Shown here in pieces: positions 1 to 10,268 of a stretch of DNA of 10,268 bases (position 1 is its first letter; every line of letters starts with the position of its first letter). Source of the DNA: a virus (taxonomy: Duplodnaviria; Heunggongvirae; Uroviricota; Caudoviricetes). The notes beneath the pieces are model-generated. The model was not told the origin of the DNA. It worked only from the letters and a program-made list of their open reading frames with translations, and made no database searches. The stretch is taken from IMG/VR virus record IMGVR_UViG_2563366845_000009, positions 1-10,268 of that record; one strand, 5' to 3'. A program made the position numbers and the translations under genes.

Positions 1-1242
1 ATGGCACGAAAAACCACCCCACTAACTATTACGGAGATCAAAAACGCACGACCAGGGGAAAAGGAATACACCCTGCAGGATGGCGGAGGATTATTTCTTC
101 TGGTGAAACCCTCCGGATCAAAAATCTGGCGTTTTACGTACTACCGCCCGGCAGATAAAAAACGGACTATCATCAGCCTCGGATCGCTGAATGATGTTTC
201 CCTGTCCGATGCCAGAGAACGACGGAATGAATACAGGTCACTCATAGCGAAGGGAGTTGACCCACAGGACCACGAACGCCGGAAACGTGAAGCAGAGAGT
301 CGGAAAAAGGGCAACACGTTCGAAAAAGTTGCCTCGGACTGGTACGAGATGAAAAAAGGCCAGAATCTGGCTTACAACACGATTAAGGATATCTGGCGAT
401 CCCTGGAAAAATACGTATTCCCGTACATCGGAAACACGCCAATAGATACCCTCACAGCTCGCCGCTTTGTTGAGATACTCACACCCATTAAAGCACGCGG
501 CAACCTGGAAACCCTGAAACGCGTTTTACAACGCATCAATGAAGTGATGGATTTTGCTGCCAACAGTGGGCTGATTGACATCAACACCGCCGCGAACGTC
601 CGCAAGGCATTCCCCTCACCCACCAAAAAGCACATGCCAACCATCCGACCGGAACAGCTACCGCAGCTAATGCACGATTTATCGGTCGCCAGCATAGAAC
701 GGCAAACCAGATTGCTGATTGAGTGGCAACTGCTGACCGTAGCACGCCCAGCCGAAGCAGCCGCCGCACGCTGGGAAGAAATAGATCTCGATGCCGAAAC
801 ATGGACGATTCCAGCCGGACGCATGAAGATGCGCCGTGACCACGTGATCCCCCTTTGCGGTCAGGCTATGGCTGTACTGGAAACCATGAAGCCAATCAGC
901 GCACACAGGGAACACGTTTTTCCCAGCCTTAAAAACCCGATGCTGCCAATGAGCAGCCAGACCGCTAACGCCGCATTGCGCCGGATGGGTTACGCTGGTG
1001 TGCTGGTGTCTCACGGATTACGCGCCATATTCAGTACAGCAGCGAACGAGGAAGGATTCGAGCCGGACGTAATCGAGGCCGCACTCGCACACGTGGACAC
1101 AAACGAGGTAAGGCGAGCATATAACCGAAGTAACTACCTGGAAAAGCGCGTGGTGCTTATGCGCTGGTGGGGGGAATTTGTAGAGGCCGCAGCTACCGGA
1201 GTGACCATAGCCAGTGGTAAAAGGGGTATCCGTGCCGTGTAA
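1..1242 (+). CDS. int: Site-specific tyrosine recombinase, P4-type integrase family (N-terminal arm-binding domain plus C-terminal catalytic domain)
   Basis: 413-aa ORF with stop at 1240-1242. N-terminus (KNARPGEKEYTLQDGGGLFLLVKPSGSKIWRFTY) is typical of the P4-integrase N-terminal domain; C-terminus has the HGLRA box and a conserved Tyr region (RRAYNRSNYLEKR). No homology search was run. Confidence 0.93.
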   Translation: MARKTTPLTITEIKNARPGEKEYTLQDGGGLFLLVKPSGSKIWRFTYYRPADKKRTIISLGSLNDVSLSDARERRNEYRSLIAKGVDPQDHERRKREAESRKKGNTFEKVASDWYEMKKGQNLAYNTIKDIWRSLEKYVFPYIGNTPIDTLTARRFVEILTPIKARGNLETLKRVLQRINEVMDFAANSGLIDINTAANVRKAFPSPTKKHMPTIRPEQLPQLMHDLSVASIERQTRLLIEWQLLTVARPAEAAAARWEEIDLDAETWTIPAGRMKMRRDHVIPLCGQAMAVLETMKPISAHREHVFPSLKNPMLPMSSQTANAALRRMGYAGVLVSHGLRAIFSTAANEEGFEPDVIEAALAHVDTNEVRRAYNRSNYLEKRVVLMRWWGEFVEAAATGVTIASGKRGIRAV

Positions 1243-1266
1243 CTGTACAAAAAACCAGTAAAAGCG

Positions 1267-1295
1267 ATGCAAACCATGCTAAACCATCGTATAAT
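1267..1295 (+). promoter_or_regulatory. Candidate sigma70 promoter: perfect -10 TATAAT (1290-1295) with weak -35 (ATGCAA, 1267-1272)
   Basis: Perfect TATAAT hexamer about 60 bp upstream of the AAGGAG ribosome-binding site and GTG of the next ORF; the -35 matches consensus at only 3 of 6 positions. Confidence 0.3.
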
Positions 1296-1358
1296 CGCCA
1301 CAACCCACCCAATACAGAGAGGAGTCACCCAAATCATGAAATTCAAGGAGCTATCCAG

Positions 1359-1601
1359 GTGTTTTTCAATGAAAAGGTATCCCCTGCTTGCGGCGAAGGG
1401 CTGCAACTGGCGTTAATGGCAAATCGTGAATTCTGGTCAACATACGATCCGGAAGACAAATCAACAGCCCCCACAAAACACGAGGTAGTCAGTTTTTTGC
1501 GCTCACGTGGCGCATCGAAAAACCTGGCTGAAAGCATCGACAAGGTGCTGAGACCCACCAGCCTTAAATGCGGTGGGCGGCCTAAGAAGTGGAAACGGTA
1601 A
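1359..1601 (+). CDS. Hypothetical small protein (80 aa, GTG start; alternative ATG at 1416)
   Basis: AAGGAG (1345-1350) lies 8 nt upstream of GTG 1359; stop TAA 1599-1601 is followed immediately by a terminator hairpin. No recognisable motif. Confidence 0.4.
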   Translation: MFFNEKVSPACGEGLQLALMANREFWSTYDPEDKSTAPTKHEVVSFLRSRGASKNLAESIDKVLRPTSLKCGGRPKKWKR

Positions 1602-1607
1602 TCACAA

Positions 1608-1636
1608 TAGCGGCCCCTTGCGGTCGCTATTTTTTT
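1608..1636 (+). terminator. Rho-independent terminator candidate
   Basis: Imperfect 8-bp stem (TAGCGGCC / GGTCGCTA, one G-T wobble) at 1608-1629 followed by a run of seven T (1630-1636), directly after the stop at 1601. Confidence 0.45.
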
Positions 1637-1678
1637 GCAGAAAGAAAAGCGTAATCAATGAGATAAAAAACAGTGAGT

Positions 1679-1694
1679 ACCGTTTTAAAACGGT
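1679..1694. promoter_or_regulatory. Perfect 16-bp palindrome ACCGTTTTAAAACGGT upstream of the AlpA-family gene (candidate operator; alternatively part of a hairpin/terminator with the T-run at 1703-1707)
   Basis: Reverse complement is identical; extended by outer arms AGTACC (1676-1681) / GGTACT (1696-1701); lies about 80 bp upstream of the GTG at 1772. Confidence 0.35.
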
Positions 1695-1771
1695 GGGTAC
1701 TGTTTTTCCCGCCCTGCCCTGTTTTACCGTATTTATCACCGGAATACGCCGGATTAACGAGGTAAAACATA

Positions 1772-1978
1772 GTGGAAACAATCAGAAAAATACTTACCCG
1801 TCAGGAAGTAAAAAATATTCTGCGCATCAAGGCAGACAGTTCGCTACAGGACATGATCAACGCCGGAAAATTCCCGAAAGGCTTCAAAATCGGTCTGCGT
1901 CGTGTTGGCTGGTATGAAGATGAAGTGCTGGCCTGGCTGAAAGAGCGCGAGGAAGAAGCGCGCGGAACGGCTGCGTAA
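1772..1978 (+). CDS. alpA: AlpA-family (MerR-like HTH) phage transcriptional regulator / excisionase-like protein
   Basis: 68-aa ORF, GTG start with GAGGT 7 nt upstream; sequence (ILRIKADSSLQDMINAGKFPKGFKIGLRRVGWYEDEVLAWLKER) matches the conserved AlpA/Vis-family pattern, including the VGW motif. Confidence 0.82.
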   Translation: METIRKILTRQEVKNILRIKADSSLQDMINAGKFPKGFKIGLRRVGWYEDEVLAWLKEREEEARGTAA

Positions 1979-2260
1979 TGGTGTGAGGCGTAACGCGATG
2001 AACATAACAAAAAGCGCCCCGTTGCCGGAGCGCCCTTGCGAACAATTAACCTGCTGCGAAAAAAATGGATCAGTGCAGGGGAATTATATCAACCGTGTGG
2101 CGAAGCGCCACAATTGCCGGATAACAGGCAAAGAAAAGGCCACCAGTCACGGCGGCCCTGCGACACAAATTTCGCGTTATCCCCAACGCATGAGCATCGC
2201 CAACAATGCCACATTTGCGGCTGGTGGGCAATGTGATCAGTGTGCTGGCTTGCTGGTGGG

Positions 2261-2440
2261 CTATTCCTGCTCTTTGGCTTTGCGCCGCTGGCGGCGTTTG
2301 ATCTCGCCTTGCATTGACGCAATGATGAATTGTGATGTGCTTTCGCCTGATTCTTTCACTGATTCCATGGCGTTTACTATTTCGTGTGGTACACGAGCCT
2401 TTAGAGCTTGTGATTTTGCGTTTTTTGTACCCGTTGCCAT
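2261..2440 (-). CDS. Small ribbon-helix-helix (Arc/MetJ/CopG-like) DNA-binding protein, putative repressor
   Basis: Internal ATG of the 120-aa minus ORF at 2438-2440, preceded by GAGGAA (6-nt spacer); 59 aa, MATGTKNAKSQALKARVPHEIVNAMESVKESGESTSQFIIASMQGEIKRRQRRKAKEQE. Pattern is beta-strand (LKARVP), helix A, G-x-S turn (SGEST), helix B, then a basic tail. Transcribed divergently from the promoter at 2502-2541. Confidence 0.55.
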   Translation of the reverse strand: MATGTKNAKSQALKARVPHEIVNAMESVKESGESTSQFIIASMQGEIKRRQRRKAKEQE

Positions 2441-2501
2441 TTCTATTCCTCTGGTGGATTGGTGGGGGACAGTATACACAGAAAAAGCACAAATAAAACT
2501 C

Positions 2502-2541
2502 TTGACGTGGGCCACACCTAAAACATATAGTGGGCCACACC
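2502..2541 (+). promoter_or_regulatory. Candidate sigma70 promoter (TTGACG-N18-TATAGT) overlapped by two direct repeats of GTGGGCCACACC (putative operator)
   Basis: -35 TTGACG 2502-2507; -10 TATAGT 2526-2531; exact 12-bp repeats at 2507-2518 and 2530-2541 (23 bp centre to centre), each containing a GTGG..CCAC half-palindrome. Sits between the divergent RHH gene and the downstream + strand gene block. Confidence 0.45.
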
Positions 2542-2639
2542 TTGAAATTATCAAGGCGCATAAATGCAAAGCCCCGCAAGTGTCGTTACCACTCGCAGGG
2601 CTTCTAACCACCAACGATAGCAACGGTATCGAGGTAGCT

Positions 2640-3179
2640 ATGTTAAATCATACCACACACCCGCAAGGGTGGGACTCGCACAACCTGAATAAAGCGGGTA
2701 TGAAAAACCTGTTGATCGCCACTGCCAGCCAGGGCTATGATTTACCCGCACCAGCAAAATCTGGTGCCGGGATTGGCGTCCTGGTATTTAACGAAGCGCA
2801 CAACACGCGCCCTGCGTGTTTTTTTGTGCCGGATAGTCACACCTTATCAATGGTGGGCTGTATGGGGGCGGAGCAATCCGCGCCGGGTTCTTCGTTAACC
2901 GGTTACGCCAACCCTGTACAGTCCACCGCCAGCGAAATTGGCGTTTCCTGCGGTGGGTTTATTAAACCTAACGAAGAGGCTGCCAACATGGCTACTACCC
3001 CTACCCTTATACATTCCCAAACTGCCTTTATCTGGCGCTTTATCATCTTTGGCGCGTCAGAATCTCAAATCATCCACGTGACCGCCTGGACAGAACGCGA
3101 AGCGCGTAACCATTGCCCGTCCGGTTGTGTCGCTGTATTCGCCGCCCGTATTCGTCAGGAGGTGCGCCATGTGCAATAA
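2640..3179 (+). CDS. Hypothetical protein (179 aa), first gene downstream of the putative operator-controlled promoter
   Basis: ATG 2640 preceded by GAGG (5-nt spacer), in frame with the long 1983-3179 ORF whose 5' portion overlaps the antisense RHH gene and the promoter; typical coding composition; no recognisable motif. Alternative start at ATG 2700. Confidence 0.45.
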   Translation: MLNHTTHPQGWDSHNLNKAGMKNLLIATASQGYDLPAPAKSGAGIGVLVFNEAHNTRPACFFVPDSHTLSMVGCMGAEQSAPGSSLTGYANPVQSTASEIGVSCGGFIKPNEEAANMATTPTLIHSQTAFIWRFIIFGASESQIIHVTAWTEREARNHCPSGCVAVFAARIRQEVRHVQ

Positions 3180-3429
3180 CACCCGTCCGGATGCAACCAC
3201 CGAAGCTATCAAAACGCTGATGGATGCGCTGATTGATATTTCTGTTATCGCAGACAAAGCGCATAAGCACGCCACCACTGAAACAGAATATGCCGGGGCT
3301 TTCGTTCCTCACTCACTGGCTGTAATGCAACTTAGTGCTGATATGGCGCTGAATGAGGCTAAAGCCATCCTGATTGCTGATTGTGAAAATGGGGGGGGGT
3401 TATGCGTGATGATCGTTTTAATTCCCTGA
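3169..3429 (+). CDS. Hypothetical small protein (86 aa)
   Basis: Strong AGGAGG (3157-3162) 6 nt upstream of ATG 3169; overlaps the stop of the upstream gene (coupled). Its 3' end contains a G9 homopolymer (3391-3399). Confidence 0.5.
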   Translation: MCNNTRPDATTEAIKTLMDALIDISVIADKAHKHATTETEYAGAFVPHSLAVMQLSADMALNEAKAILIADCENGGGLCVMIVLIP

Positions 3430-3623
3430 AACAGGAATTTTCCGGCGTTCCTGATGATGCGGCTGATGCGCTTTCGTCAATATCTGAAATTATGCGGGTG
3501 GCTTTTTTCTTTCTTTGCACTGATGAGCACAGAGATACAGGGCTAAATATTCTTGATATTGCCGCTAACTATGCTGATTTCGTGACAGAAGCTGTTTTAA
3601 GAAAAACGACGGACGGGGATTAA
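3402..3623 (+). CDS. Hypothetical small protein (73 aa)
   Basis: ATG 3402 lies immediately after the G9 tract (G-rich ribosome-binding site); overlaps the previous ORF by 28 nt in the -1 frame; stop TAA 3621-3623. Confidence 0.45.
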   Translation: MRDDRFNSLKQEFSGVPDDAADALSSISEIMRVAFFFLCTDEHRDTGLNILDIAANYADFVTEAVLRKTTDGD

Positions 3624-3624
3624 T

Positions 3625-3858
3625 ATGCGTGATATTTACCACGAAACAATAGACCGCGCATTTCTTGCACTTTCTCACAGTGAAAGCATGATGGAAATAT
3701 TGCGCATATGGCTTGAAACACTTGGCGACAATGAACGCGACAAACAAAAATCAAGAATTGCCACGGCATTAATAACGCTTCTTGAGCCTGTAATAATGGA
3801 GCTACAAGAAATAGACCTATTGCACGACAGATATAAAGAACAGCACACCGGAGAATAA
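3625..3858 (+). CDS. Hypothetical small protein (77 aa)
   Basis: ATG 3625 is 1 nt after the previous stop, GGGGA 5 nt upstream; acidic/helical composition. Confidence 0.5.
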   Translation: MRDIYHETIDRAFLALSHSESMMEILRIWLETLGDNERDKQKSRIATALITLLEPVIMELQEIDLLHDRYKEQHTGE

Positions 3859-3863
3859 AAATA

Positions 3864-4163
3864 ATGAAACTTAAATATTCTGGCTTTACTGCCAGCGGCC
3901 CCGCTCGGCCTGAAATCCGCCCCGGCGATATTTTCAAAGATAAATACGGCGGCACTGTAACGATTAAAAGCGTGGCGGGACGGTGTGTTACTTACCGCCG
4001 TGATGGGTACGGCTATGACTGCGTGATGCCTGTTTATCAGTTCCGGCGTGATTTTTCTCTGGTACAGAACGCAACACGCGGTAAGCCCACCAGCAGGGAA
4101 AAAGCACGGGAAAATATTAAGAAAATAAAAAGCATGCTCAGCGCATCCAGAGGTAAAAAATGA
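3864..4163 (+). CDS. Hypothetical small basic protein (99 aa)
   Basis: ATG 3864 with GGAG upstream; stop TGA 4161-4163 overlaps the helicase ATG (ATGA coupling). Basic C-terminal tail. Possibly related to small proteins found upstream of replication genes in enterobacterial islands, but not verifiable here. Confidence 0.5.
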   Translation: MKLKYSGFTASGPARPEIRPGDIFKDKYGGTVTIKSVAGRCVTYRRDGYGYDCVMPVYQFRRDFSLVQNATRGKPTSREKARENIKKIKSMLSASRGKK

Positions 4164-5566
4164 AACTGGCACCGAACGTAAAACTGTTACCGAAAGATAA
4201 ACACACTGAGGCGGTTATTTTTGCGGGTGATAATGCTCACTCCTTTGCAGAACATTACATGATTGCACAGGCCAAAAAAGCAGGCGATCCCATCCCTCCG
4301 GTTTACCTGGGCCGTTATCAGTTAAGCGAACTGGACAATTTACAGATTGTTGATGAAGGACGATACAGAGCAAAGGTCATACGCGCCGGAAACCTGGACG
4401 ATATGCAGATGCTGACCATTGCCACCAAACTGGCGATCGCAGGTGTCCAGGAAGCACGGTTACTTTCAGAGAATTTCGAACTGCTGGAGGACTGGAGCGA
4501 GCAACTACCGCGGCTTAAAGAAACCTGGGAACGCGGGGAAAGTCTGGTCATGAATGGTGGAAAGCGAAAAATCACACTTCCCATCTCATGGGGTTCTGAG
4601 GGATTCGACGCGCAGCAAAGCTACGTAATTAAGGGGCTTATTCCGGCTGAGTCATTATGCAGCACCTACGGGGCCAGCGGTTCTTATAAATCGTTCCTGG
4701 CTATTTCCTGGTCGTGCCATGTTGCCACAGGTATGGCATGGGGAGGCCGCAGGGTAAGTAAGGGCGCTGTTATCTATATCGCTGGCGAAGGCAGTATGGG
4801 CGTAAAACGCCGCGTTAAGGCGTGGGAGATAACCCATGACAAGGTGGTTACAGATTTGTGCATCGTTAACGCGCCTGTCTTCCCCGCATCGCCTGACTAT
4901 GTGGAGCAGGTTATCAGGACTGCCGGACTTGTTAAGAGCAGAACGGGCGAAAATGTGCGGCTGATTGTGATCGACACGCTGGCCCGTTGCTTTGGTGGAA
5001 ATGATGAAAATGATTCCCGCGATATGGGCGCATTTATCCAGGGGTGTGACGCGATAAAGCAGGCCACAGGGGCCACGGTGCTGGTGGTTCACCATTCCGG
5101 CAAGGATGAAACAAAGGGGGCGCGCGGTTCCAGCGCATTCCGTGCCGCGCTTGATGCAGAGTACCGAATCAGCCGGGAAAATTCAGAGGTTACAGCACTG
5201 GTGGCGGCGTGTACGAAGATGAAGGACGCAGAGGAGCCAAAAGAGAGTGCATACGATCTTAAAAGCGTGGAGGTGTTCACCGATACAGATGGCGAAGAGA
5301 TTGTGTCCATGGTGGTGATTGACGTTCCCCGCGCCCCTGCTGAACTGGAGCGCATAGAGGAGGCCGGGAACAAGACGGAAAATCACACGGCTTTATGGGG
5401 TTGTATCCGGTCGCGTATACAGCATGGTGATAAATGTACGATCCCGCTGCTACGTGATGACATGAAAAAGCTGGGATATGACACAAAACACCTTAAACGA
5501 TGGTTAGCCAAACTGGAAAAAGACGGCGTGATTTGCGTCGATGGGGATGATGTTCACCCACTGTAA
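4160..5566 (+). CDS. Replicative helicase, RepA / AAA_25 (RecA-like, DnaB-superfamily) ATPase
   Basis: 468 aa; Walker A-like GASGSYKS, Walker B-like hydrophobic stretch ending in Asp (RLIVIDTLARCF), and the VLVVHHSGKD motif typical of RepA-type helicases; GAGG ribosome-binding site 6 nt upstream; followed immediately by the iteron array. Confidence 0.82.
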   Translation: MKLAPNVKLLPKDKHTEAVIFAGDNAHSFAEHYMIAQAKKAGDPIPPVYLGRYQLSELDNLQIVDEGRYRAKVIRAGNLDDMQMLTIATKLAIAGVQEARLLSENFELLEDWSEQLPRLKETWERGESLVMNGGKRKITLPISWGSEGFDAQQSYVIKGLIPAESLCSTYGASGSYKSFLAISWSCHVATGMAWGGRRVSKGAVIYIAGEGSMGVKRRVKAWEITHDKVVTDLCIVNAPVFPASPDYVEQVIRTAGLVKSRTGENVRLIVIDTLARCFGGNDENDSRDMGAFIQGCDAIKQATGATVLVVHHSGKDETKGARGSSAFRAALDAEYRISRENSEVTALVAACTKMKDAEEPKESAYDLKSVEVFTDTDGEEIVSMVVIDVPRAPAELERIEEAGNKTENHTALWGCIRSRIQHGDKCTIPLLRDDMKKLGYDTKHLKRWLAKLEKDGVICVDGDDVHPL

Positions 5567-5766
5567 AAAGTGGGCGTTAAAAGTGGGAGTAGTGGGTAAT
5601 TTAACTGGAATTTAACAAAATCGCCCACTTTCCCACGTGTATACATCCCAAAAAGTGGGCACTAAAAAAATACTTATGAAACAGTACGATATAAAACCAC
5701 AAAATCCCAGGTGGGACGAAGTGGGAAACCATGAAAAGTGGGCAGAAAAAGTGGGCACAGGTGGGC
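5565..5766 (+). repeat. Iteron-type replication origin: nine direct copies of (A)AAGTGGGC in two clusters, two inverted copies, and an AT-rich spacer
   Basis: GTGGG cores on + at 5570, 5583, 5592, 5656, 5711, 5721, 5738, 5751, 5761; inverted CCCAC at 5624-5628 and 5632-5636; AT-rich 5598-5620 (AATTTAAC twice) and 5661-5705; immediately 3' of the helicase gene. Confidence 0.7.
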
Positions 5767-5768
5767 GC

Positions 5769-6020
5769 ATGACAAGAAAAACCAGAGATAAGACAGCACC
5801 AAAATATAAAGCGTTAGACATGACAGAGCACGCCTTAAAGGTGGCAATCAGAACTATAGACCGCCACGCCGGAGAAGGATACGCGAAAGCACATCCCGAA
5901 CTGATAAGCGCATTCATGACCACGGCGGCGGCAAACTTTGCCACGCTGACAGAACGGGAGATTGCCGAAGCGGAACTGGTGACAACCATCAACGTTAAAA
6001 CCGGAGAGCAGACAGCATGA
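5769..6020 (+). CDS. Hypothetical protein (83 aa), translationally coupled to ssb
   Basis: ATG 5769 with GGTGGG 5 nt upstream; the longer 5637 start would run through the iterons; stop TGA 6018-6020 overlaps the ssb ATG 6017. Confidence 0.45.
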   Translation: MTRKTRDKTAPKYKALDMTEHALKVAIRTIDRHAGEGYAKAHPELISAFMTTAAANFATLTEREIAEAELVTTINVKTGEQTA

Positions 6021-6439
6021 CAGCACAGATAGCGGCTTACGGGCGGCTGGTGGCTGACCCGCAGTTAAAGACCACCAGCAAAGGGACACAAATGGCGATG
6101 GCGAGTATGGCGGTTCCCCTGCCGTGCAGCCAGGCCGATGACGGAACGGCGACGATGTGGTTATCCGTCCTGGCGTTTGGCAGACAGGCCGACGCACTGG
6201 CAAAGCACCACAAAGGCGAACTCGTGAGCGTGGCGGGTAACATGCAGGTAAGCCAGTGGACAGGCCAGAACGGCGAAACGCGGCAGGGCTGGCAGGTTAT
6301 CGCAGACAGCGTAATCAGTGCGCGAACGGCGCGACCGGGCGGCAAAAAAGGCCAACAGGGGCAGGCCACTGATGCACTGAACAGGGCAAAACAACAGGCG
6401 GGAAATGATGATCCGTACGGGGATAACATACCGTTTTAA
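6017..6439 (+). CDS. ssb: Single-stranded DNA-binding protein (short SSB with acidic C-terminal tail)
   Basis: 140 aa; N-terminus (AYGRLVADPQLKTT, then QWTGQNGETRQ) fits the SSB OB-fold pattern; Gly/Gln-rich linker; C-terminal DDPYGDNIPF resembles the conserved SSB tail (E. coli ends ...DDDIPF). Confidence 0.85.
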   Translation: MTAQIAAYGRLVADPQLKTTSKGTQMAMASMAVPLPCSQADDGTATMWLSVLAFGRQADALAKHHKGELVSVAGNMQVSQWTGQNGETRQGWQVIADSVISARTARPGGKKGQQGQATDALNRAKQQAGNDDPYGDNIPF

Positions 6440-6456
6440 GCAACGAGTGACAGAAG

Positions 6457-6478
6457 CCGGGATTTTCCCGGTTTTTTT
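6457..6478 (+). terminator. Rho-independent terminator downstream of ssb
   Basis: Stem CCGGG(A)/(T)CCCGG (6457-6471) followed by seven T (6472-6478). Confidence 0.6.
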
Positions 6479-6527
6479 ACGGGTCCTCCCGGTGGAGTGG
6501 CCTTACCACGGGGCGGGAGCGGCGCGG
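6472..6527 (+). other. cos-like site, copy A (cosQ/cosN-like core with a divergent right half)
   Basis: 6472-6516 (TTTTTTTACGGGTCCTCCCGGTGGAGTGGCCTTACCACGGGGCGG) is identical to 9009-9053; the next 11 nt match copy B at 8 of 11. Contains dyad CCCGGTGG-N10-CCACGGGG and the ACG|GGGCGG junction resembling the lambda cosN nick site. Confidence 0.5.
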
Positions 6528-6740
6528 AAAAAGGCTGGTTTTTGCATTTTCATGGCGGCGGCAGCATGTGTGATAATTTATTGATAATTAAAAAATATTT
6601 CCGTTTTCACCTGTACAATATTTTTTTCGCCCTGTCATTAGACCAGTTTGTAATTAATTGAAATATATAAATAAATCCGTTTTTCACCTGCCAGGTGGAG
6701 TTGCCAGTGTCAAAACGTGTTCAGATGGCGGGATATTTAT

Positions 6741-6763
6741 GCCGGATTTTCTCCGGCTTTTTT
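6741..6763 (+). terminator. Second rho-independent terminator-like hairpin in the ssb-capsid intergenic region
   Basis: GCCGGA-TTTTC-TCCGGC (6741-6757) followed by TTTTTT (6758-6763). Confidence 0.45.
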
Positions 6764-6865
6764 GTGTCTGAATCTGACTAATCTGTTTTCATGATAGAAA
6801 TATATTTATCTACCACTTTTATCGATCAATAATGCGCGCAGTTTAGTCAGTAAGAGGAAGTTACT

Positions 6866-7075
6866 GTGAATTGTATTAATGACCTGAACACAGGCGAGGT
6901 AAGAGGTGGTTCCGTTCATCTGGATGCGCAGACCGTTATGCGCCTTAAGCAGTACAGGATCGACCACATAAATCATCATCCTGGCCAACCATTACCAGGT
7001 GTGGCGCAGATTGTCAGACACGCAGTTAACGCGTGGCTTGATAAGAATGGTTTTGCATCTGGGGGTGAGCAATGA
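6866..7075 (+). CDS. Hypothetical small protein (69 aa), translationally coupled to the protease-capsid gene
   Basis: GTG 6866 with GAGGA 7 nt upstream; stop TGA 7073-7075 overlaps ATG 7072; basic region (VHLDAQTVMRLKQYRIDHINHH) could bind nucleic acid. Confidence 0.5.
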   Translation: MNCINDLNTGEVRGGSVHLDAQTVMRLKQYRIDHINHHPGQPLPGVAQIVRHAVNAWLDKNGFASGGEQ

Positions 7076-8985
7076 ATCACTGGTACACCATTAAGGCGGC
7101 GGGTGTTCGCGGAGCGGCAGAAATATCCATCTATGAAGAAATTGGCGGCTTCGGTATCACCGCGAAGCAGTTTGCGGAAGACCTGAAAGCCCTGGGCGAT
7201 GTCTCACATATCGACCTGCGGATCCATTCGCCAGGTGGTGACGTGTTTGAAGGCATCGCCATCTATAACCTGTTACGGAATCATCCGGCAGAAATTACGG
7301 TTTATATCGATGGTGTTGCGGCTTCAATGGCTTCGGTTGTCGCAATGGCTGGCGATCGTGTTGTGATGCCGGAAAACGCCATGATGATGATACATAAGCC
7401 GTGGGGTATCTCTGGCGGAAATGCTGGTGATATGCGTGATTATGCTGATTTGCTGGATAAGGTGGAAACCGTGTTAATCCCTGCTTATGCCAGAAAAACG
7501 GGCAAATCAGCACAGGAAATTACCGCCATGCTGGAAGATGAAACCTGGATGGACGGGAAAGAATGCCTTAAGCAAGGTTTTGCTGATGAATTGTTGCCAT
7601 CCGTCAGAGCAATGGCGCGAATTGAATCGAAACGCACAGGAGATTTTTCACACATGCCGGAAACCATTAAAGGAATGATTACCCCGCCACAGGGAGCAGC
7701 CAATATTGCTGGTAATGAACAGAAGCGCATCAACGGAATAAGTGAAGTGTTTAGCCTGTTCGGCAGTCGTTACGACGGGATCAAAATGGCGTGCCTGGAA
7801 GATGCATCATGTACACCGGAGATGGCCCGTGAAAAGTTGTTGAACGAGATGGGGCGCGAGTCCACGCCATCAAATAAAAATACCCCGGCTCATATTTATG
7901 CCGGTAACGGGAACATAACAGGTGATGCAATTCGTCAGGGGCTTTATTCTCGTCTCGGGTATGAACGCCCAGAGCGGGGAAATCCTTACGCGATGATGAG
8001 CCTTTTTGAAATGGCCCAGGCATCACTAACGGATCGTGGTATCAGTGTTGGCGGTTTTTTAAATCGCTCGCAGGTCGTTAATGCAGCTTTCACACACAGC
8101 AGCAGCGATTTTTCTCATATTCTGGCTGGTGGTGCTGAAAAATCAGTACTGAAAGGCTGGCAGGACAGCGGCGAAACGTTTCAGAAATGGACGCGTACCG
8201 GATCGCTTTCAAACTTTCATGAAGCAAAGCGCGTTGGTCTGAATGGTTTTTCAAAGCTGGATAAAGTACCGGAAGGTGCGGAATATAAATACATCACCAC
8301 CAGAGATAAAGGTGTACCTATTGCGCTGGCCACGTACGGGAATATTTTTTCCGTTACCCGTCAGGCCATTATCAACGATGACCTGACCCAGTTAACTACA
8401 ATCCCCATGGCGATGGGGCGTGCGGCCGCCAGAACAGTAGGTAATCTGGTTTATCTTCTGTTAACCAGCAACGGCAAATTTACGGATGGTAAAGCGTTAT
8501 TCCATGCCGATCATAAAAATCTTATTGCGAAGGATATGGACATGGAGGGGCTTAACGAAGCCCGTAAGCTGATGCGACTACAGGAGGATGCCAACGGCGA
8601 CTCCCTGAATATTACCCCCGCTTTTGTTCTGGTCCCTGCTGCGCTGGAGTCTGCCGCACATCGCGCCATTCTGTCATCGTCATCACTCTTTCCGGTTGAT
8701 GGTGAGGGCACTATCAATCAGAACCCCGGCATCATTAACGTGGTGAAAGATATGGCTGAGGTTATTGTTGAGCCACGTCTTGATAAGAACAATAACAAGG
8801 AGTGGTATGTAGCCGCAGCGAAAGGGATGGACACGATAGAGGTCGCTTATCTTGATGGTATTGATACGCCATATCTTGAGGAGCAGGAGGGCTTTACTGT
8901 TGATGGTGTCGCCTGGAAGGTGCGCATAGATGCAGGTGTTGCGGCCCTCGATTATCGTGGACTACTGAAATCGAGTGGAGCATGA
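7072..8985 (+). CDS. Fused prohead protease (ClpP/S14-like serine protease) and HK97-fold major capsid protein
   Basis: 637 aa; N-terminal ~200 aa has the ClpP-like catalytic Ser context (GVAASMASVVAMAG) and His context (MMMIHKPWG); the C-terminal ~400 aa is consistent with a Mu gpT / HK97-type major head protein; an ORF of this length with no internal stops is strong coding evidence. Confidence 0.88.
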   Translation: MNHWYTIKAAGVRGAAEISIYEEIGGFGITAKQFAEDLKALGDVSHIDLRIHSPGGDVFEGIAIYNLLRNHPAEITVYIDGVAASMASVVAMAGDRVVMPENAMMMIHKPWGISGGNAGDMRDYADLLDKVETVLIPAYARKTGKSAQEITAMLEDETWMDGKECLKQGFADELLPSVRAMARIESKRTGDFSHMPETIKGMITPPQGAANIAGNEQKRINGISEVFSLFGSRYDGIKMACLEDASCTPEMAREKLLNEMGRESTPSNKNTPAHIYAGNGNITGDAIRQGLYSRLGYERPERGNPYAMMSLFEMAQASLTDRGISVGGFLNRSQVVNAAFTHSSSDFSHILAGGAEKSVLKGWQDSGETFQKWTRTGSLSNFHEAKRVGLNGFSKLDKVPEGAEYKYITTRDKGVPIALATYGNIFSVTRQAIINDDLTQLTTIPMAMGRAAARTVGNLVYLLLTSNGKFTDGKALFHADHKNLIAKDMDMEGLNEARKLMRLQEDANGDSLNITPAFVLVPAALESAAHRAILSSSSLFPVDGEGTINQNPGIINVVKDMAEVIVEPRLDKNNNKEWYVAAAKGMDTIEVAYLDGIDTPYLEEQEGFTVDGVAWKVRIDAGVAALDYRGLLKSSGA

Positions 8986-8992
8986 CAACAAG

Positions 8993-9015
8993 GGCGGCGA
9001 TAGCCGCCTTTTTTT
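8993..9015 (+). terminator. Rho-independent terminator downstream of the capsid gene
   Basis: GGCGGC-GATA-GCCGCC perfect 6-bp stem (8993-9008) followed by seven T (9009-9015); the T-run is also the first 7 nt of the cos repeat. Confidence 0.6.
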
Positions 9016-9090
9016 ACGGGTCCTCCCGGTGGAGTGGCCTTACCACGGGGCGGCAGACGCGCGGGTTTTCGCTATTTATGAGCCTTTTTC
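9009..9090 (+). other. Lambda-like cos site, copy B (cosQ/cosN plus proximal cosB), directly upstream of the small terminase gene
   Basis: Window CCACG|GGGCGGCAGACG|CGCGGGTTTTCGCTATTTATGA (9043-9082) compared with the lambda left end as recalled from memory (GGGCGGCGACCT CGCGGGTTTTCGCTATTTATGA): predicted 12-nt cohesive end GGGCGGCAGACG (9048-9059), followed by a 22-nt match to lambda. Upstream TACGGGTCCT matches the lambda right-end motif. Confidence 0.65.
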
Positions 9091-9192
9091 GGGTGCTGGT
9101 GGTGGTTTTGTTGTTCGCTCTATCTCTATGAATAAAAAGGGAAAGATAAAACAAATACACCAACCTGAAACATTACTTAAGTGGGGATATTG

Positions 9193-9735
9193 ATGAAATC
9201 GCACCTGATGAACAAAAAAAACATGGCGCAAAGCTGCCGTGTAAGTGCGACAGCGTTCGACAAGTGGGGAGTGACTCCCGTTGAACGTAAAGGCCGCGAG
9301 GCGTTTTATGATGTTGCCAGCGTAATAGACAATCGGGTTAGCAATGCAATTAACCAGATTACAGACGACAAAGGCGAGATTGATAATGATGAGCTTTTGC
9401 GAGTCAGGATCAGATTGCTGACAGCGCAGGCGGAGGCGCAGGAGCTTAAAAACGAGCGCGAACGCGGCGACGTGATTAGTACGGAATTTTGTATATATGC
9501 GCTTTCAAAACTGGCGAGTCAGATTTCATCTATCATGGACAGCCTGCCGCTTACCATGCAAAGGCGCTTCCCACAGATGACCCCCGCCATGCTGGATGGC
9601 CTGAAAAAAGAAGTTGTCAGAGCCTGTAACGCATGCACAAAACTTGATGAAAACATCCCGCGAATGCTGTCCGATTATCTGATGGAAACTACCGGAAATG
9701 TGTCTGATAAGTTTCAGCCGGATAAAGACAAGTAA
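9193..9735 (+). CDS. Terminase small subunit, lambda Nu1-like (winged-HTH cosB-binding)
   Basis: By recollection of lambda Nu1: LLTAQAEAQELKNERERGDVISTEFCIYALSKLASQISSIMDSLPLTMQRRFPQ aligns with RLTRAQADAQELKNARDSAEVVETAFCTFVLSRIAGEIASILDGLPLSVQRRFPE, and LDENIPRMLSDYL with LDELIPGLLSEYI. Start is ambiguous (GTG 9181, ATG 9193, ATG 9208); 9193 gives 180 aa. Confidence 0.85.
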   Translation: MKSHLMNKKNMAQSCRVSATAFDKWGVTPVERKGREAFYDVASVIDNRVSNAINQITDDKGEIDNDELLRVRIRLLTAQAEAQELKNERERGDVISTEFCIYALSKLASQISSIMDSLPLTMQRRFPQMTPAMLDGLKKEVVRACNACTKLDENIPRMLSDYLMETTGNVSDKFQPDKDK

Positions 9736-9753
9736 CGTAGTGCACAATGACCG

Positions 9754-9776
9754 AAGCCAGTTTACTGACTGGCTTT
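9754..9776 (+). terminator. Weak hairpin / possible terminator after the terminase gene
   Basis: AAGCCAGT-TTACTG-ACTGGCTT 8-bp stem (9754-9775) followed by only TTT. Confidence 0.3.
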
Positions 9777-9896
9777 CAGCGTTGCGCTGGTGGGAGTTAT
9801 GCGTCAGTGATGAACAAAAAATAATCGAAATCGACACCGAAAAATAAAACATCAAGTCATATCAATATATTGCATTGGTGGTGATGACGAATAAAA

Positions 9897-10268
9897 ATGC
9901 AAAAACTAGCCTTTTTCCGCGATGCTCCCGCCCCGTGGCAGGGCACCCCACCAGGAGGACCCGCCATCACTATGGAGGCCATGACCATGACCGAGACCGA
10001 AGCGCTCGGGATAATCCGCAGTATTACCGGAATCAGCCAGCAGGCTGACGAACAGGCCACGCAGCCGGATACAGTCACCGCTGAAAATTACGCGCGTGTG
10101 ATGGCTGAGGTGATGCGCCGTGACGGTATCGAGCTTAATGGCGTGGATATACGCAACATACGCACCAGAGTTCTGGAGATGTTGTCGTACCGTCGCCGCG
10201 TGCAGATGTACCAGGAGAAAGAAAAAATTACGTACCAGTGGAAGAAGCCGGAGCGGTTACGGCGATAA
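9897..10268 (+). CDS. Hypothetical protein (123 aa from ATG 9897; alternative 98-aa start at ATG 9972)
   Basis: Open frame ending at TAA 10266-10268; ATG 9897 has no Shine-Dalgarno; the in-frame ATG 9972 has AGGAGG (9953-9958) but a long 13-nt spacer. No recognisable motif. Confidence 0.4.
   Translation: MQKLAFFRDAPAPWQGTPPGGPAITMEAMTMTETEALGIIRSITGISQQADEQATQPDTVTAENYARVMAEVMRRDGIELNGVDIRNIRTRVLEMLSYRRRVQMYQEKEKITYQWKKPERLRR

Follow-up and report, generated by a model that had tools for sequence, protein, structure and literature searches.

IMG/VR virus record IMGVR_UViG_2563366845_000009, of which we analysed positions 1 to 10,268 (this whole stretch of 10,268 nucleotides is called the window below), raises the question of what a phage small terminase (TerS) gene does where no large terminase (TerL) gene accompanies it. 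A first-pass annotation, made from the letters alone, had read the gene at 9193 as a Nu1-like small terminase followed by a hairpin and an unrelated open reading frame (ORF), and had taken this arrangement for that of a satellite which uses its own TerS to redirect the TerL of a helper. Judged from its gene order and flanks, the window is a phage-inducible chromosomal island (PICI) of Escherichia coli, belonging to the EcCICFT073/EcCIIHE3034 family and lying between tRNA-Pro/yejM and yejO. We propose that terS encodes the packaging-specificity subunit of this island, and it is likely that the protein binds the island's own cosB and recruits a gpA-type TerL from the helper. The features at the right-hand end on which the question turns are these:

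9193..9735, + strand: terS, an orphan Nu1-family small terminase gene (180 aa; ATG at 9193 after GGGGA)
9753..9776, + strand: hairpin with a 10-bp stem, a 4-nt loop and no T-run, 18 nt after the terS stop
9987..10268, + strand: 93-aa gene, the last of the island (phrog_1561 at 2e-51; the PGAP/RefSeq call agrees)

A small terminase that stands alone

The Nu1-like assignment of the first-pass annotation was borne out. TerS scored 81.8 bits against Pfam Phage_Nu1 (PF07471; cut-off 30), matched phrog_57, "terminase small subunit", over aa 5-177 (E 6e-52), and aligned by BLASTP over its full length with both lambda Nu1 (36% identity, E 1e-35) and N15 gp1 (47% identity, E 2e-55). The likeness to lambda Nu1 peaks at aa 80-166, the TerL-binding half, and a C-terminal segment is conserved with Nu1 residues ~100-180; the assignment of TerL binding to the C-terminal half of Nu1 is taken from published work (PMC9026076, PMC6739421). 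At the other end of the protein, aa 5-48 align well with the N15 gp1 domain, and the AlphaFold model places a beta-alpha-alpha-beta-beta-alpha domain there with a predicted local distance difference test score (pLDDT) of 69-79. [quoted passage not shown] Sequence searches of the PDB with TerS matched neither the solved Nu1 domain nor RppC. The gene was found in 770 of 5426 complete E. coli genomes and is under purifying selection, with a ratio of nonsynonymous to synonymous substitution rates (dN/dS) of 0.09-0.27 versus its island homologues.

No TerL adjoins terS in the window or in any relative examined, so that the terS-terL operon of a phage is lacking. The first-pass annotation had likewise found none immediately downstream, with the reservation that one might lie beyond 10268. 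None was present in the next 1-2 kb either: tblastn with lambda gpA, Tritos TerL and N15 gp2 on 29 kb around the island returned a best E of 0.27. In E. coli RM11911, which is 100% identical to window positions 8900-10268, the sequence beyond the window end consists of 433 bp of non-coding DNA and an attachment (att) repeat, followed by the host genes yejO and narP and the ccm operon. The relatives of TerS, whose neighbourhoods were compared through protein-cluster contexts, tell the same story. Those examined have 83, 82, 60 or 58% identity, the 58% ones coming from Enterobacter and Citrobacter; all are found in islands with the order cap, (decoration), TerS, 93-aa ORF, and never beside a TerL. 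A genome-contig scan for further TerS relatives with a single-sequence query gave 92 pattern matches, 0 of which were confirmed. The idea of a satellite with its own small terminase is therefore supported by an island that runs from integrase to packaging genes, by its att repeats and by the TerS relatives examined, none of which adjoins a TerL.

The Enterobacter and Citrobacter loci (L019-L022) show an order of their own: cap_E, decoration, AlpA-like and TerS genes are followed by opposite-strand FRG and DUF3892 genes, with a 5'-truncated gpE-like gene next in three of the four (L019-L021). Lambda-like FI-FII-Z genes come after these in all four and U-V-G-T-H genes in L020-L022; Nu1, A, W, B, C and D genes are absent. 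This island either abuts a prophage remnant or is fused to one. The helix-turn-helix gene found 5' of terS in related islands was considered as a possible Rpp and rejected, since it is AlpA-like.

The hairpin that had been noted after terS is also real, with a minimum free energy of -23.9 kcal/mol (z -2.64), and 0 of 200 shuffles fold as well. It was not called by the terminator scan because it has no T-run, and it is not a canonical intrinsic terminator. The ORF described downstream of it exists, but at 93 aa rather than the 100-120 aa first given; the 123-aa reading from 9897 is an over-extension running across an inverted cos site (cos3, below), and a GGAGG at 9974-9978 lies 8 nt 5' of the 93-aa gene. 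Of about 930 homologues of the protein, 120 were listed, and nearly every one of these has a length of 93 aa. It is 74-84% identical to the products of the genes following rppA (CFT073), terS (IHE3034) and DUF1441-terS (L023). The gene is under purifying selection (dN/dS 0.17-0.42) and almost absent from phages, with one weak match in 50,697 records. It is a conserved satellite-specific core gene of this island family, standing behind Rpp, Nu1-type and DUF1441-type TerS alike. The protein had no match in Pfam, NCBIfam, PADLOC or the PDB, whether searched as a single sequence or as a profile, and its AlphaFold model, of three helices, has a pLDDT of 61, too low to support a comparison of folds. 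That the protein is an Rpp homologue was rejected for want of sequence similarity. It may be an accessory packaging or interference factor, as the first-pass annotation suggested, and to call it a packaging or late-regulatory accessory would be a guess. Among the post-ori genes of EcCICFT073 that were cloned singly, only rppA blocked lambda (PMC6739421); whether the clones included the homologue of the 93-aa gene could not be confirmed from the text of that paper.

The cognate cos site and a proposed mechanism

The strongest support for the satellite interpretation comes from the cos sites, which were absent from the first-pass annotation. The island's own cos, termed cos2, is found 146 bp 5' of terS and is composed as follows:

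9018..9115, + strand: cos2, in register-exact alignment with the cos of lambda, of N15 and of related islands
9018-9024, + strand: cosQ of cos2, GGGTCCT
9048-9059, + strand: cosN of cos2, GGGCGGCAGACG, 30 nt from cosQ, which is the lambda spacing
after cosN and before the R3-like motif: lambda I2-like CGCGGGTTTTCGCTATTTATGA
9098-9115: R3-like motif GGTGGTGGTTTTGTTGTT, bp 51-68 from cosN, resembling N15 R3

Hence cosQ, cosN and cosB lie directly upstream of terS, as a cognate cos does in the Nu1 family. For comparison, N15 has a single R3 element, GAGGTTGTTGTTT, at bp 48-60 (R3 position from PMC9026076). A register-exact cos, anchored on cosN, was present 5' of terS in every island examined, and a TTTGTTGTT-type motif was present 5' of terS in all islands whose TerS has the N15-type domain (the window, L008, L009, L011, L019 and IHE3034). 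The sister island TerS proteins P0101-P0105 (L015-L018) have a lambda Nu1-type N-terminal half together with a C-terminal half nearly identical to that of the window TerS, and L015, the sole island with such a chimeric TerS that was examined, has a lambda-like cosB with R3, R2 and R1 look-alikes. On the alignments, the chimeras of L015-L018 represent a natural domain swap of packaging specificity. The DNA-binding domain of TerS co-varies with cosB across the islands, and this co-variation is the best evidence at hand that the island TerS proteins read their own cos.

We infer TerL binding, the kind of helper, packaging and interference by the island TerS as follows. A helper lambdoid phage would induce the island, with AlpA turning on excision and replication. 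The N15-type winged-helix domain of TerS would then bind the R3-like GGTGGTGGTTTTGTTGTT, 51-68 bp to the right of the cos2 cosN, and the cos2 motif GGTTTTGTTGTT would matter for packaging from this site. The C-terminal half, conserved with lambda Nu1 and N15 gp1, would recruit the helper's gpA-family TerL, which would nick cosN, package island concatemers rightwards and end at the next cosQ-cosN in the same orientation. Helper packaging would be reduced as the island TerS competes for TerL. Helper-dependent induction, packaging and transfer have been shown for the relatives EcCICFT073 and, weakly, EcCIIHE3034 (PMC6092414). No helper phage with the exact cos2 cosN GGGCGGCAGACGCGCGGG was found, the matches in IMG/VR being three contigs of ~10 kb. 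These three contigs alone in that collection have the cosN variant GGGCGGCAGACG. Two of them belong to the same island family (L025 and L026; 10.4-10.7 kb, from integrase to 93-aa gene), and the third (L027, 9.2 kb) had no BLAST match to the window.

The island, its other cos sites and competing explanations

The remainder of the island is made up of these features:

about 90 bp 5' of the window start and again about 433 bp beyond 10268: att repeat TTTTTAGCTACACGTT, a 16-bp direct repeat, beside tRNA-Pro
1..1242, + strand: tyrosine integrase, which forms the island's left end (Pfam Phage_integrase, Arm-DNA-bind_3 and Phage_int_M)
1772..1978, + strand: AlpA-family regulator (Pfam Phage_AlpA)
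3864..6439, + strand: replication module of DUF4222 protein, helicase, repeats, small ORF and single-stranded DNA-binding protein (SSB) (Pfam, PHROGs, PGAP, and repeats D5 and D9)
4160-5566, + strand: RepA-like AAA_25 helicase
5565-5755: iteron-like repeats, three AAAAGTGGGC-type copies ~84 bp apart, directly after the helicase gene
6017-6439, + strand: SSB
7072..8985, + strand: ClpP-like prohead protease/major capsid fusion, the sole virion gene of the island (Pfam CLP_protease and Phage_capsid_4, phrog_133)
8993..9016, + strand: terminator-like hairpin and T-run (GGCGGC GATA GCCGCC TTTTTTT) that ends the capsid gene directly before cos2 (read from the sequence; the stem is also in the terminator scan)

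Since the att repeat is found at both ends and host genes follow directly, the element is an inserted island, 10.8 kb long between the 16-bp direct repeats (positions 5010 and 15802 of locus L001), a length within the 10-15 kb or so expected of PICIs. Its order is int, alpA, regulatory region, DUF4222 protein, helicase, iteron-like repeats, SSB, capsid fusion, terS and 93-aa gene, so that the PICI core set of integrase, AlpA, primase/replicase module, capsid-related gene and terS is present in one orientation. This fits the published layout and core components of Gram-negative PICIs (PMC6092414, PMC10085698). Searches of the 10 main ORFs against Pfam and PHROGs gave no TerL, portal, tail or lysis gene, and the PGAP annotation of the island has none either. 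The AAAAGTGGGC-type repeats at 5565-5755 are probably the iterons of the island's replication origin. The short regulatory region has ORFs resembling ash and icd beside two RNAs, the isrK Hfq-binding RNA (80 bits) and the C4 antisense RNA (75 bits), which Rfam places at about 2747-2932 of the window (L001 7848-8033); the 398-aa ORF at 1983-3179, listed mechanically over this RNA region, is probably spurious.

The capsid fusion shares just 57% identity with its counterparts in mEp460, cdtI, Tritos and Stx phages, and for that reason it looks like the product of an old satellite lineage and not of a recent capture. As there is no portal gene, an island-specific capsid, if any, would need the helper's portal. 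A 69-aa ORF at 6866-7075 (phrog_4934, function not assigned) is translationally coupled to the capsid fusion gene; here PGAP calls a 57-aa ORF on the opposite strand instead.

Besides cos2, the window has two further cos sites:

6472..6714, + strand: cos1, a copy of a helper-phage cos, between the SSB and capsid genes (repeats D1, D2 and D4)
6511-6522, + strand: cosN of cos1, GGGCGGGAGCGG
within cos1: also a cosQ, and a cosB with repeated TTTTCACCTG elements
about 9800..9966, - strand: cos3, an inverted cos separating terS from the 93-aa gene (it forms inverted repeats I1-I4 with cos1 and cos2)
9956-9962 (+ strand coordinates): cosQ of cos3
9933-9922, - strand: cosN of cos3, GGGCGGGAGCAT, with a cosB-like flank that extends leftwards

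The first of these matches, at ~90% identity, bases 1-204 of the phages Tritos and cdtI, both of whose genomes begin exactly at window position 6511, and it also matches HannyBb. The homology stops 8 nt into the phage terS, which in Tritos starts at base 197. In cos3, cosN and the first 30 nt match the left end of Tritos, and homology to the cos of islands with a DUF1441-type TerS extends over ~130 nt past cosN, some 100 nt further than the Tritos match. This inverted cos is identical in L009 and nearly identical in L008, and equivalents are found in L011, L015, EcCICFT073 and EcCIIHE3034.

The distribution of these modules points to a composite origin. Of 5426 E. coli genomes, 184 have the module of cos1 and the ClpP-capsid fusion, and it continues with a DUF1441-type TerS and the 93-aa gene in 177 of them and with a Nu1-type TerS in 7. 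Homology to the commoner DUF1441-TerS islands ends at window position 9064, just past cosN, while homology to islands with a gpE-type capsid and Nu1-type TerS begins at 9045. Since the homology switches at 9045-9064, the island is a recombinant joined at cosN. The module of terS, cos3 and the 93-aa gene usually stands behind a lambda gpE-like capsid gene and a decoration gene, and it appears that the modules of these islands are exchanged at cos.

Several observations weigh against the proposal that terS serves as the packaging-specificity subunit. The island is a rare recombinant (7 of 5426 genomes) of a DUF1441-associated capsid module and a Nu1-type TerS module, and as a hybrid of the two it may have capsid-matched and terminase-matched helpers that differ. 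Furthermore, cos1 could let a Tritos- or cdtI-like helper package the island without the island TerS. The islands with TerS that were tested in 2018 transferred poorly, with at most ~100 transductants/ml, and their helpers were not identified (PMC6092414). Among 50,697 phage records, no phage TerS was more than 47% identical to the island TerS. The AlphaFold model of TerS has a moderate overall pLDDT of 68, and its best Foldseek matches, MerR-type winged helix-turn-helix proteins (BldC; template modelling score 0.56-0.61), were not significant (E >=0.1).

The three sites could also be taken together, the island then being a three-way packaging generalist whose three cos sites have three cosB specificities. 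We regard this as doubtful. In this view cos1, of Tritos/cdtI type, cos2, N15-like and served by the island's own TerS, and cos3, of the type found in DUF1441-TerS islands, would each have a specificity of their own. If it were true, the island could be mobilised directly by one lambdoid lineage, through hijacking of the TerL of another, and in trans through the TerS of a co-resident satellite. It would also answer why such PICIs keep more than one cos site, and the Rpp slot would originally have been filled by a full-length TerS, from which Rpp evolved.

Satellite P4 uses the cos of P2, and a similar dependence can be imagined here, in which packaging proceeds mainly from cos1 by a helper's DUF1441-type TerS and TerL, while the Nu1-type TerS, recombined in at cosN, is redundant or only occasionally useful. 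The resemblance of cos1 to the phage left ends, which takes in the repeated cosB elements along with the rest of the 204 bp, speaks for this, as do the membership of the island capsid gene in the same phage group (Tritos/cdtI/mEp460-like), the pairing of the cos1-capsid module with a DUF1441-type TerS in 177 of 184 genomes and the break in homology to the DUF1441-TerS islands just after cosN. However, both terS and cos2 of the window are intact, and terS is 98.5% identical at the nucleotide level to the copy in the non-recombinant island L008, with a dN/dS of 0.27. The DUF1441-type islands themselves hold cos1 plus a second cos, with a different cosB, beside their own terS, and since they keep both, having cos1 is evidently not enough for an island to dispense with its TerS. 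We therefore consider packaging mainly through cos1 unlikely.

It is very unlikely that TerS is chiefly an anti-phage decoy, titrating the helper's TerL or mixing with helper TerS oligomers, with island transfer a minor matter. The conserved TerL-binding C-terminal half would suit such a role, Rpp in the same slot blocks lambda (PMC6739421), and transfer of the tested TerS islands was very low (PMC6092414). Against this, a cognate cos with a co-varying cosB is kept beside terS in every island examined, which is sensible only if DNA recognition matters, and no PADLOC match was obtained. Moreover, the proposed interference would arise from the same interaction as a side effect, and the decoy is thus not an exclusive alternative to the packaging-specificity proposal.

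That terS is the decaying remnant of a defective lambdoid prophage which lost its TerL is highly improbable and was rejected: TerS, the capsid gene and the cos sites all have phage homologues, but across hundreds of genomes the ORFs are unbroken and selection on them is purifying, the same compact order recurs at unrelated sites (yejM/yejO, cspD/clpS, roxA/phoQ and abgR/smrA), the island has an integrase, alpA and replication module of its own, and the nearest phage proteins are just 47% (TerS) and 57% (capsid) identical.

Relation to known packaging systems

The kind of element described here is already known, since an orphan terS belongs to the definition of PICIs (PMC10085698), E. coli islands with this arrangement were described in 2018 (PMC6092414), and an island with an 83%-identical TerS was published in that year. 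The satellite was correctly recognised from a reading of the raw sequence alone; the result adds little about the kind. What is new is incremental, namely the exact anatomy of cos, the co-variation of DNA-binding domain and cosB, the equivalence of the TerS and Rpp slots, and a rare recombinant with three cos sites. That a Nu1-type TerS fills the Rpp slot is relevant to where Rpp came from, a question already raised in print; the swappable DNA-binding domain and cosB modules give directly testable predictions of specificity, and three cos types in one island offer a handle on why such islands carry several cos sites.

Among phages, lambda and N15 have in Nu1 and gp1 proteins of the same family as the island TerS; the window resembles lambda in cosQ, cosN and I2, and N15 in the DNA-binding domain and the single R3-like cosB element. 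Both phages differ in that a large terminase gene overlaps the 3' end of terS, whereas the window has no TerL. Among satellites, the pac-type Staphylococcus aureus pathogenicity islands (SaPI1/SaPIbov1; cited in PMC6739421) likewise combine a satellite TerS with a helper TerL to package satellite DNA and have no TerL of their own. They differ in using headful (pac) packaging and an unrelated TerS family that is helped by Ppi, whereas the window would use cos packaging with a TerS of Nu1/N15 type. The capsid-forming PICIs (cf-PICIs; 10.1101/2022.09.08.507074, PMC10085698) are satellites with their own capsid protein and TerS, as here, but they also encode TerL, portal and head-tail connectors, and usually HNH; none of these genes is in the window, and a cf-PICI identity was rejected for want of the TerL, portal and connector genes.

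A close published relative is EcCIIHE3034, a TerS-encoding PICI with low-frequency transfer (Fillol-Salom et al. 2018, PMC6092414). Its packaging module matches that of the window: a forward cos with the GGTGGTGGTTTTGTTGTT motif is followed by the gene for a Nu1-type TerS of 180 aa, 83% identical to that of the window, and then by an inverted cos, and the last gene before host DNA is again the 93-aa gene, at 78% identity. It differs in its integration at cspD/clpS and in its cos sites, the cosN being the lambda sequence GGGCGGCGACCT and the inverted cos being lambda-like. Furthermore, the place taken in the window by cos1 and the ClpP-capsid fusion is filled in EcCIIHE3034 by a 137-aa ORF together with a decoration gene and a capsid gene like lambda gpE.

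EcCICFT073 is the PICI of E. coli that has been studied best. Its layout is that of the window: a forward cos, whose cosB is particular to the island, precedes a specificity gene, and an inverted cos and a 93-aa gene (74% identical) come after it. The window TerS occupies the exact slot of its rppA, between the forward cos and the inverted cos with the 93-aa gene. RppA is a proven packaging redirector (PMC6739421). The logic would be shared, in that a gpA-type TerL of the helper is retargeted to the island cosB while a lambda-like cosQ and cosN are kept (PMC6739421, PMC9026076). No sequence similarity between the two proteins was detected: RppA and the window TerS gave no BLASTP alignment at E <=100, and membership of TerS in the RppA/B/C family (~144-153 aa, no TerL-binding tail) was rejected on the lack of similarity and on its Nu1-type C-terminus. 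Rpp (144 aa) lacks the TerL-binding C-terminus and acts by heterodimerising with the TerS of the helper (PMC6739421, PMC9026076), whereas the window TerS, at 180 aa, is complete and has a C-terminal half of its own, and therefore should not need the helper's TerS.

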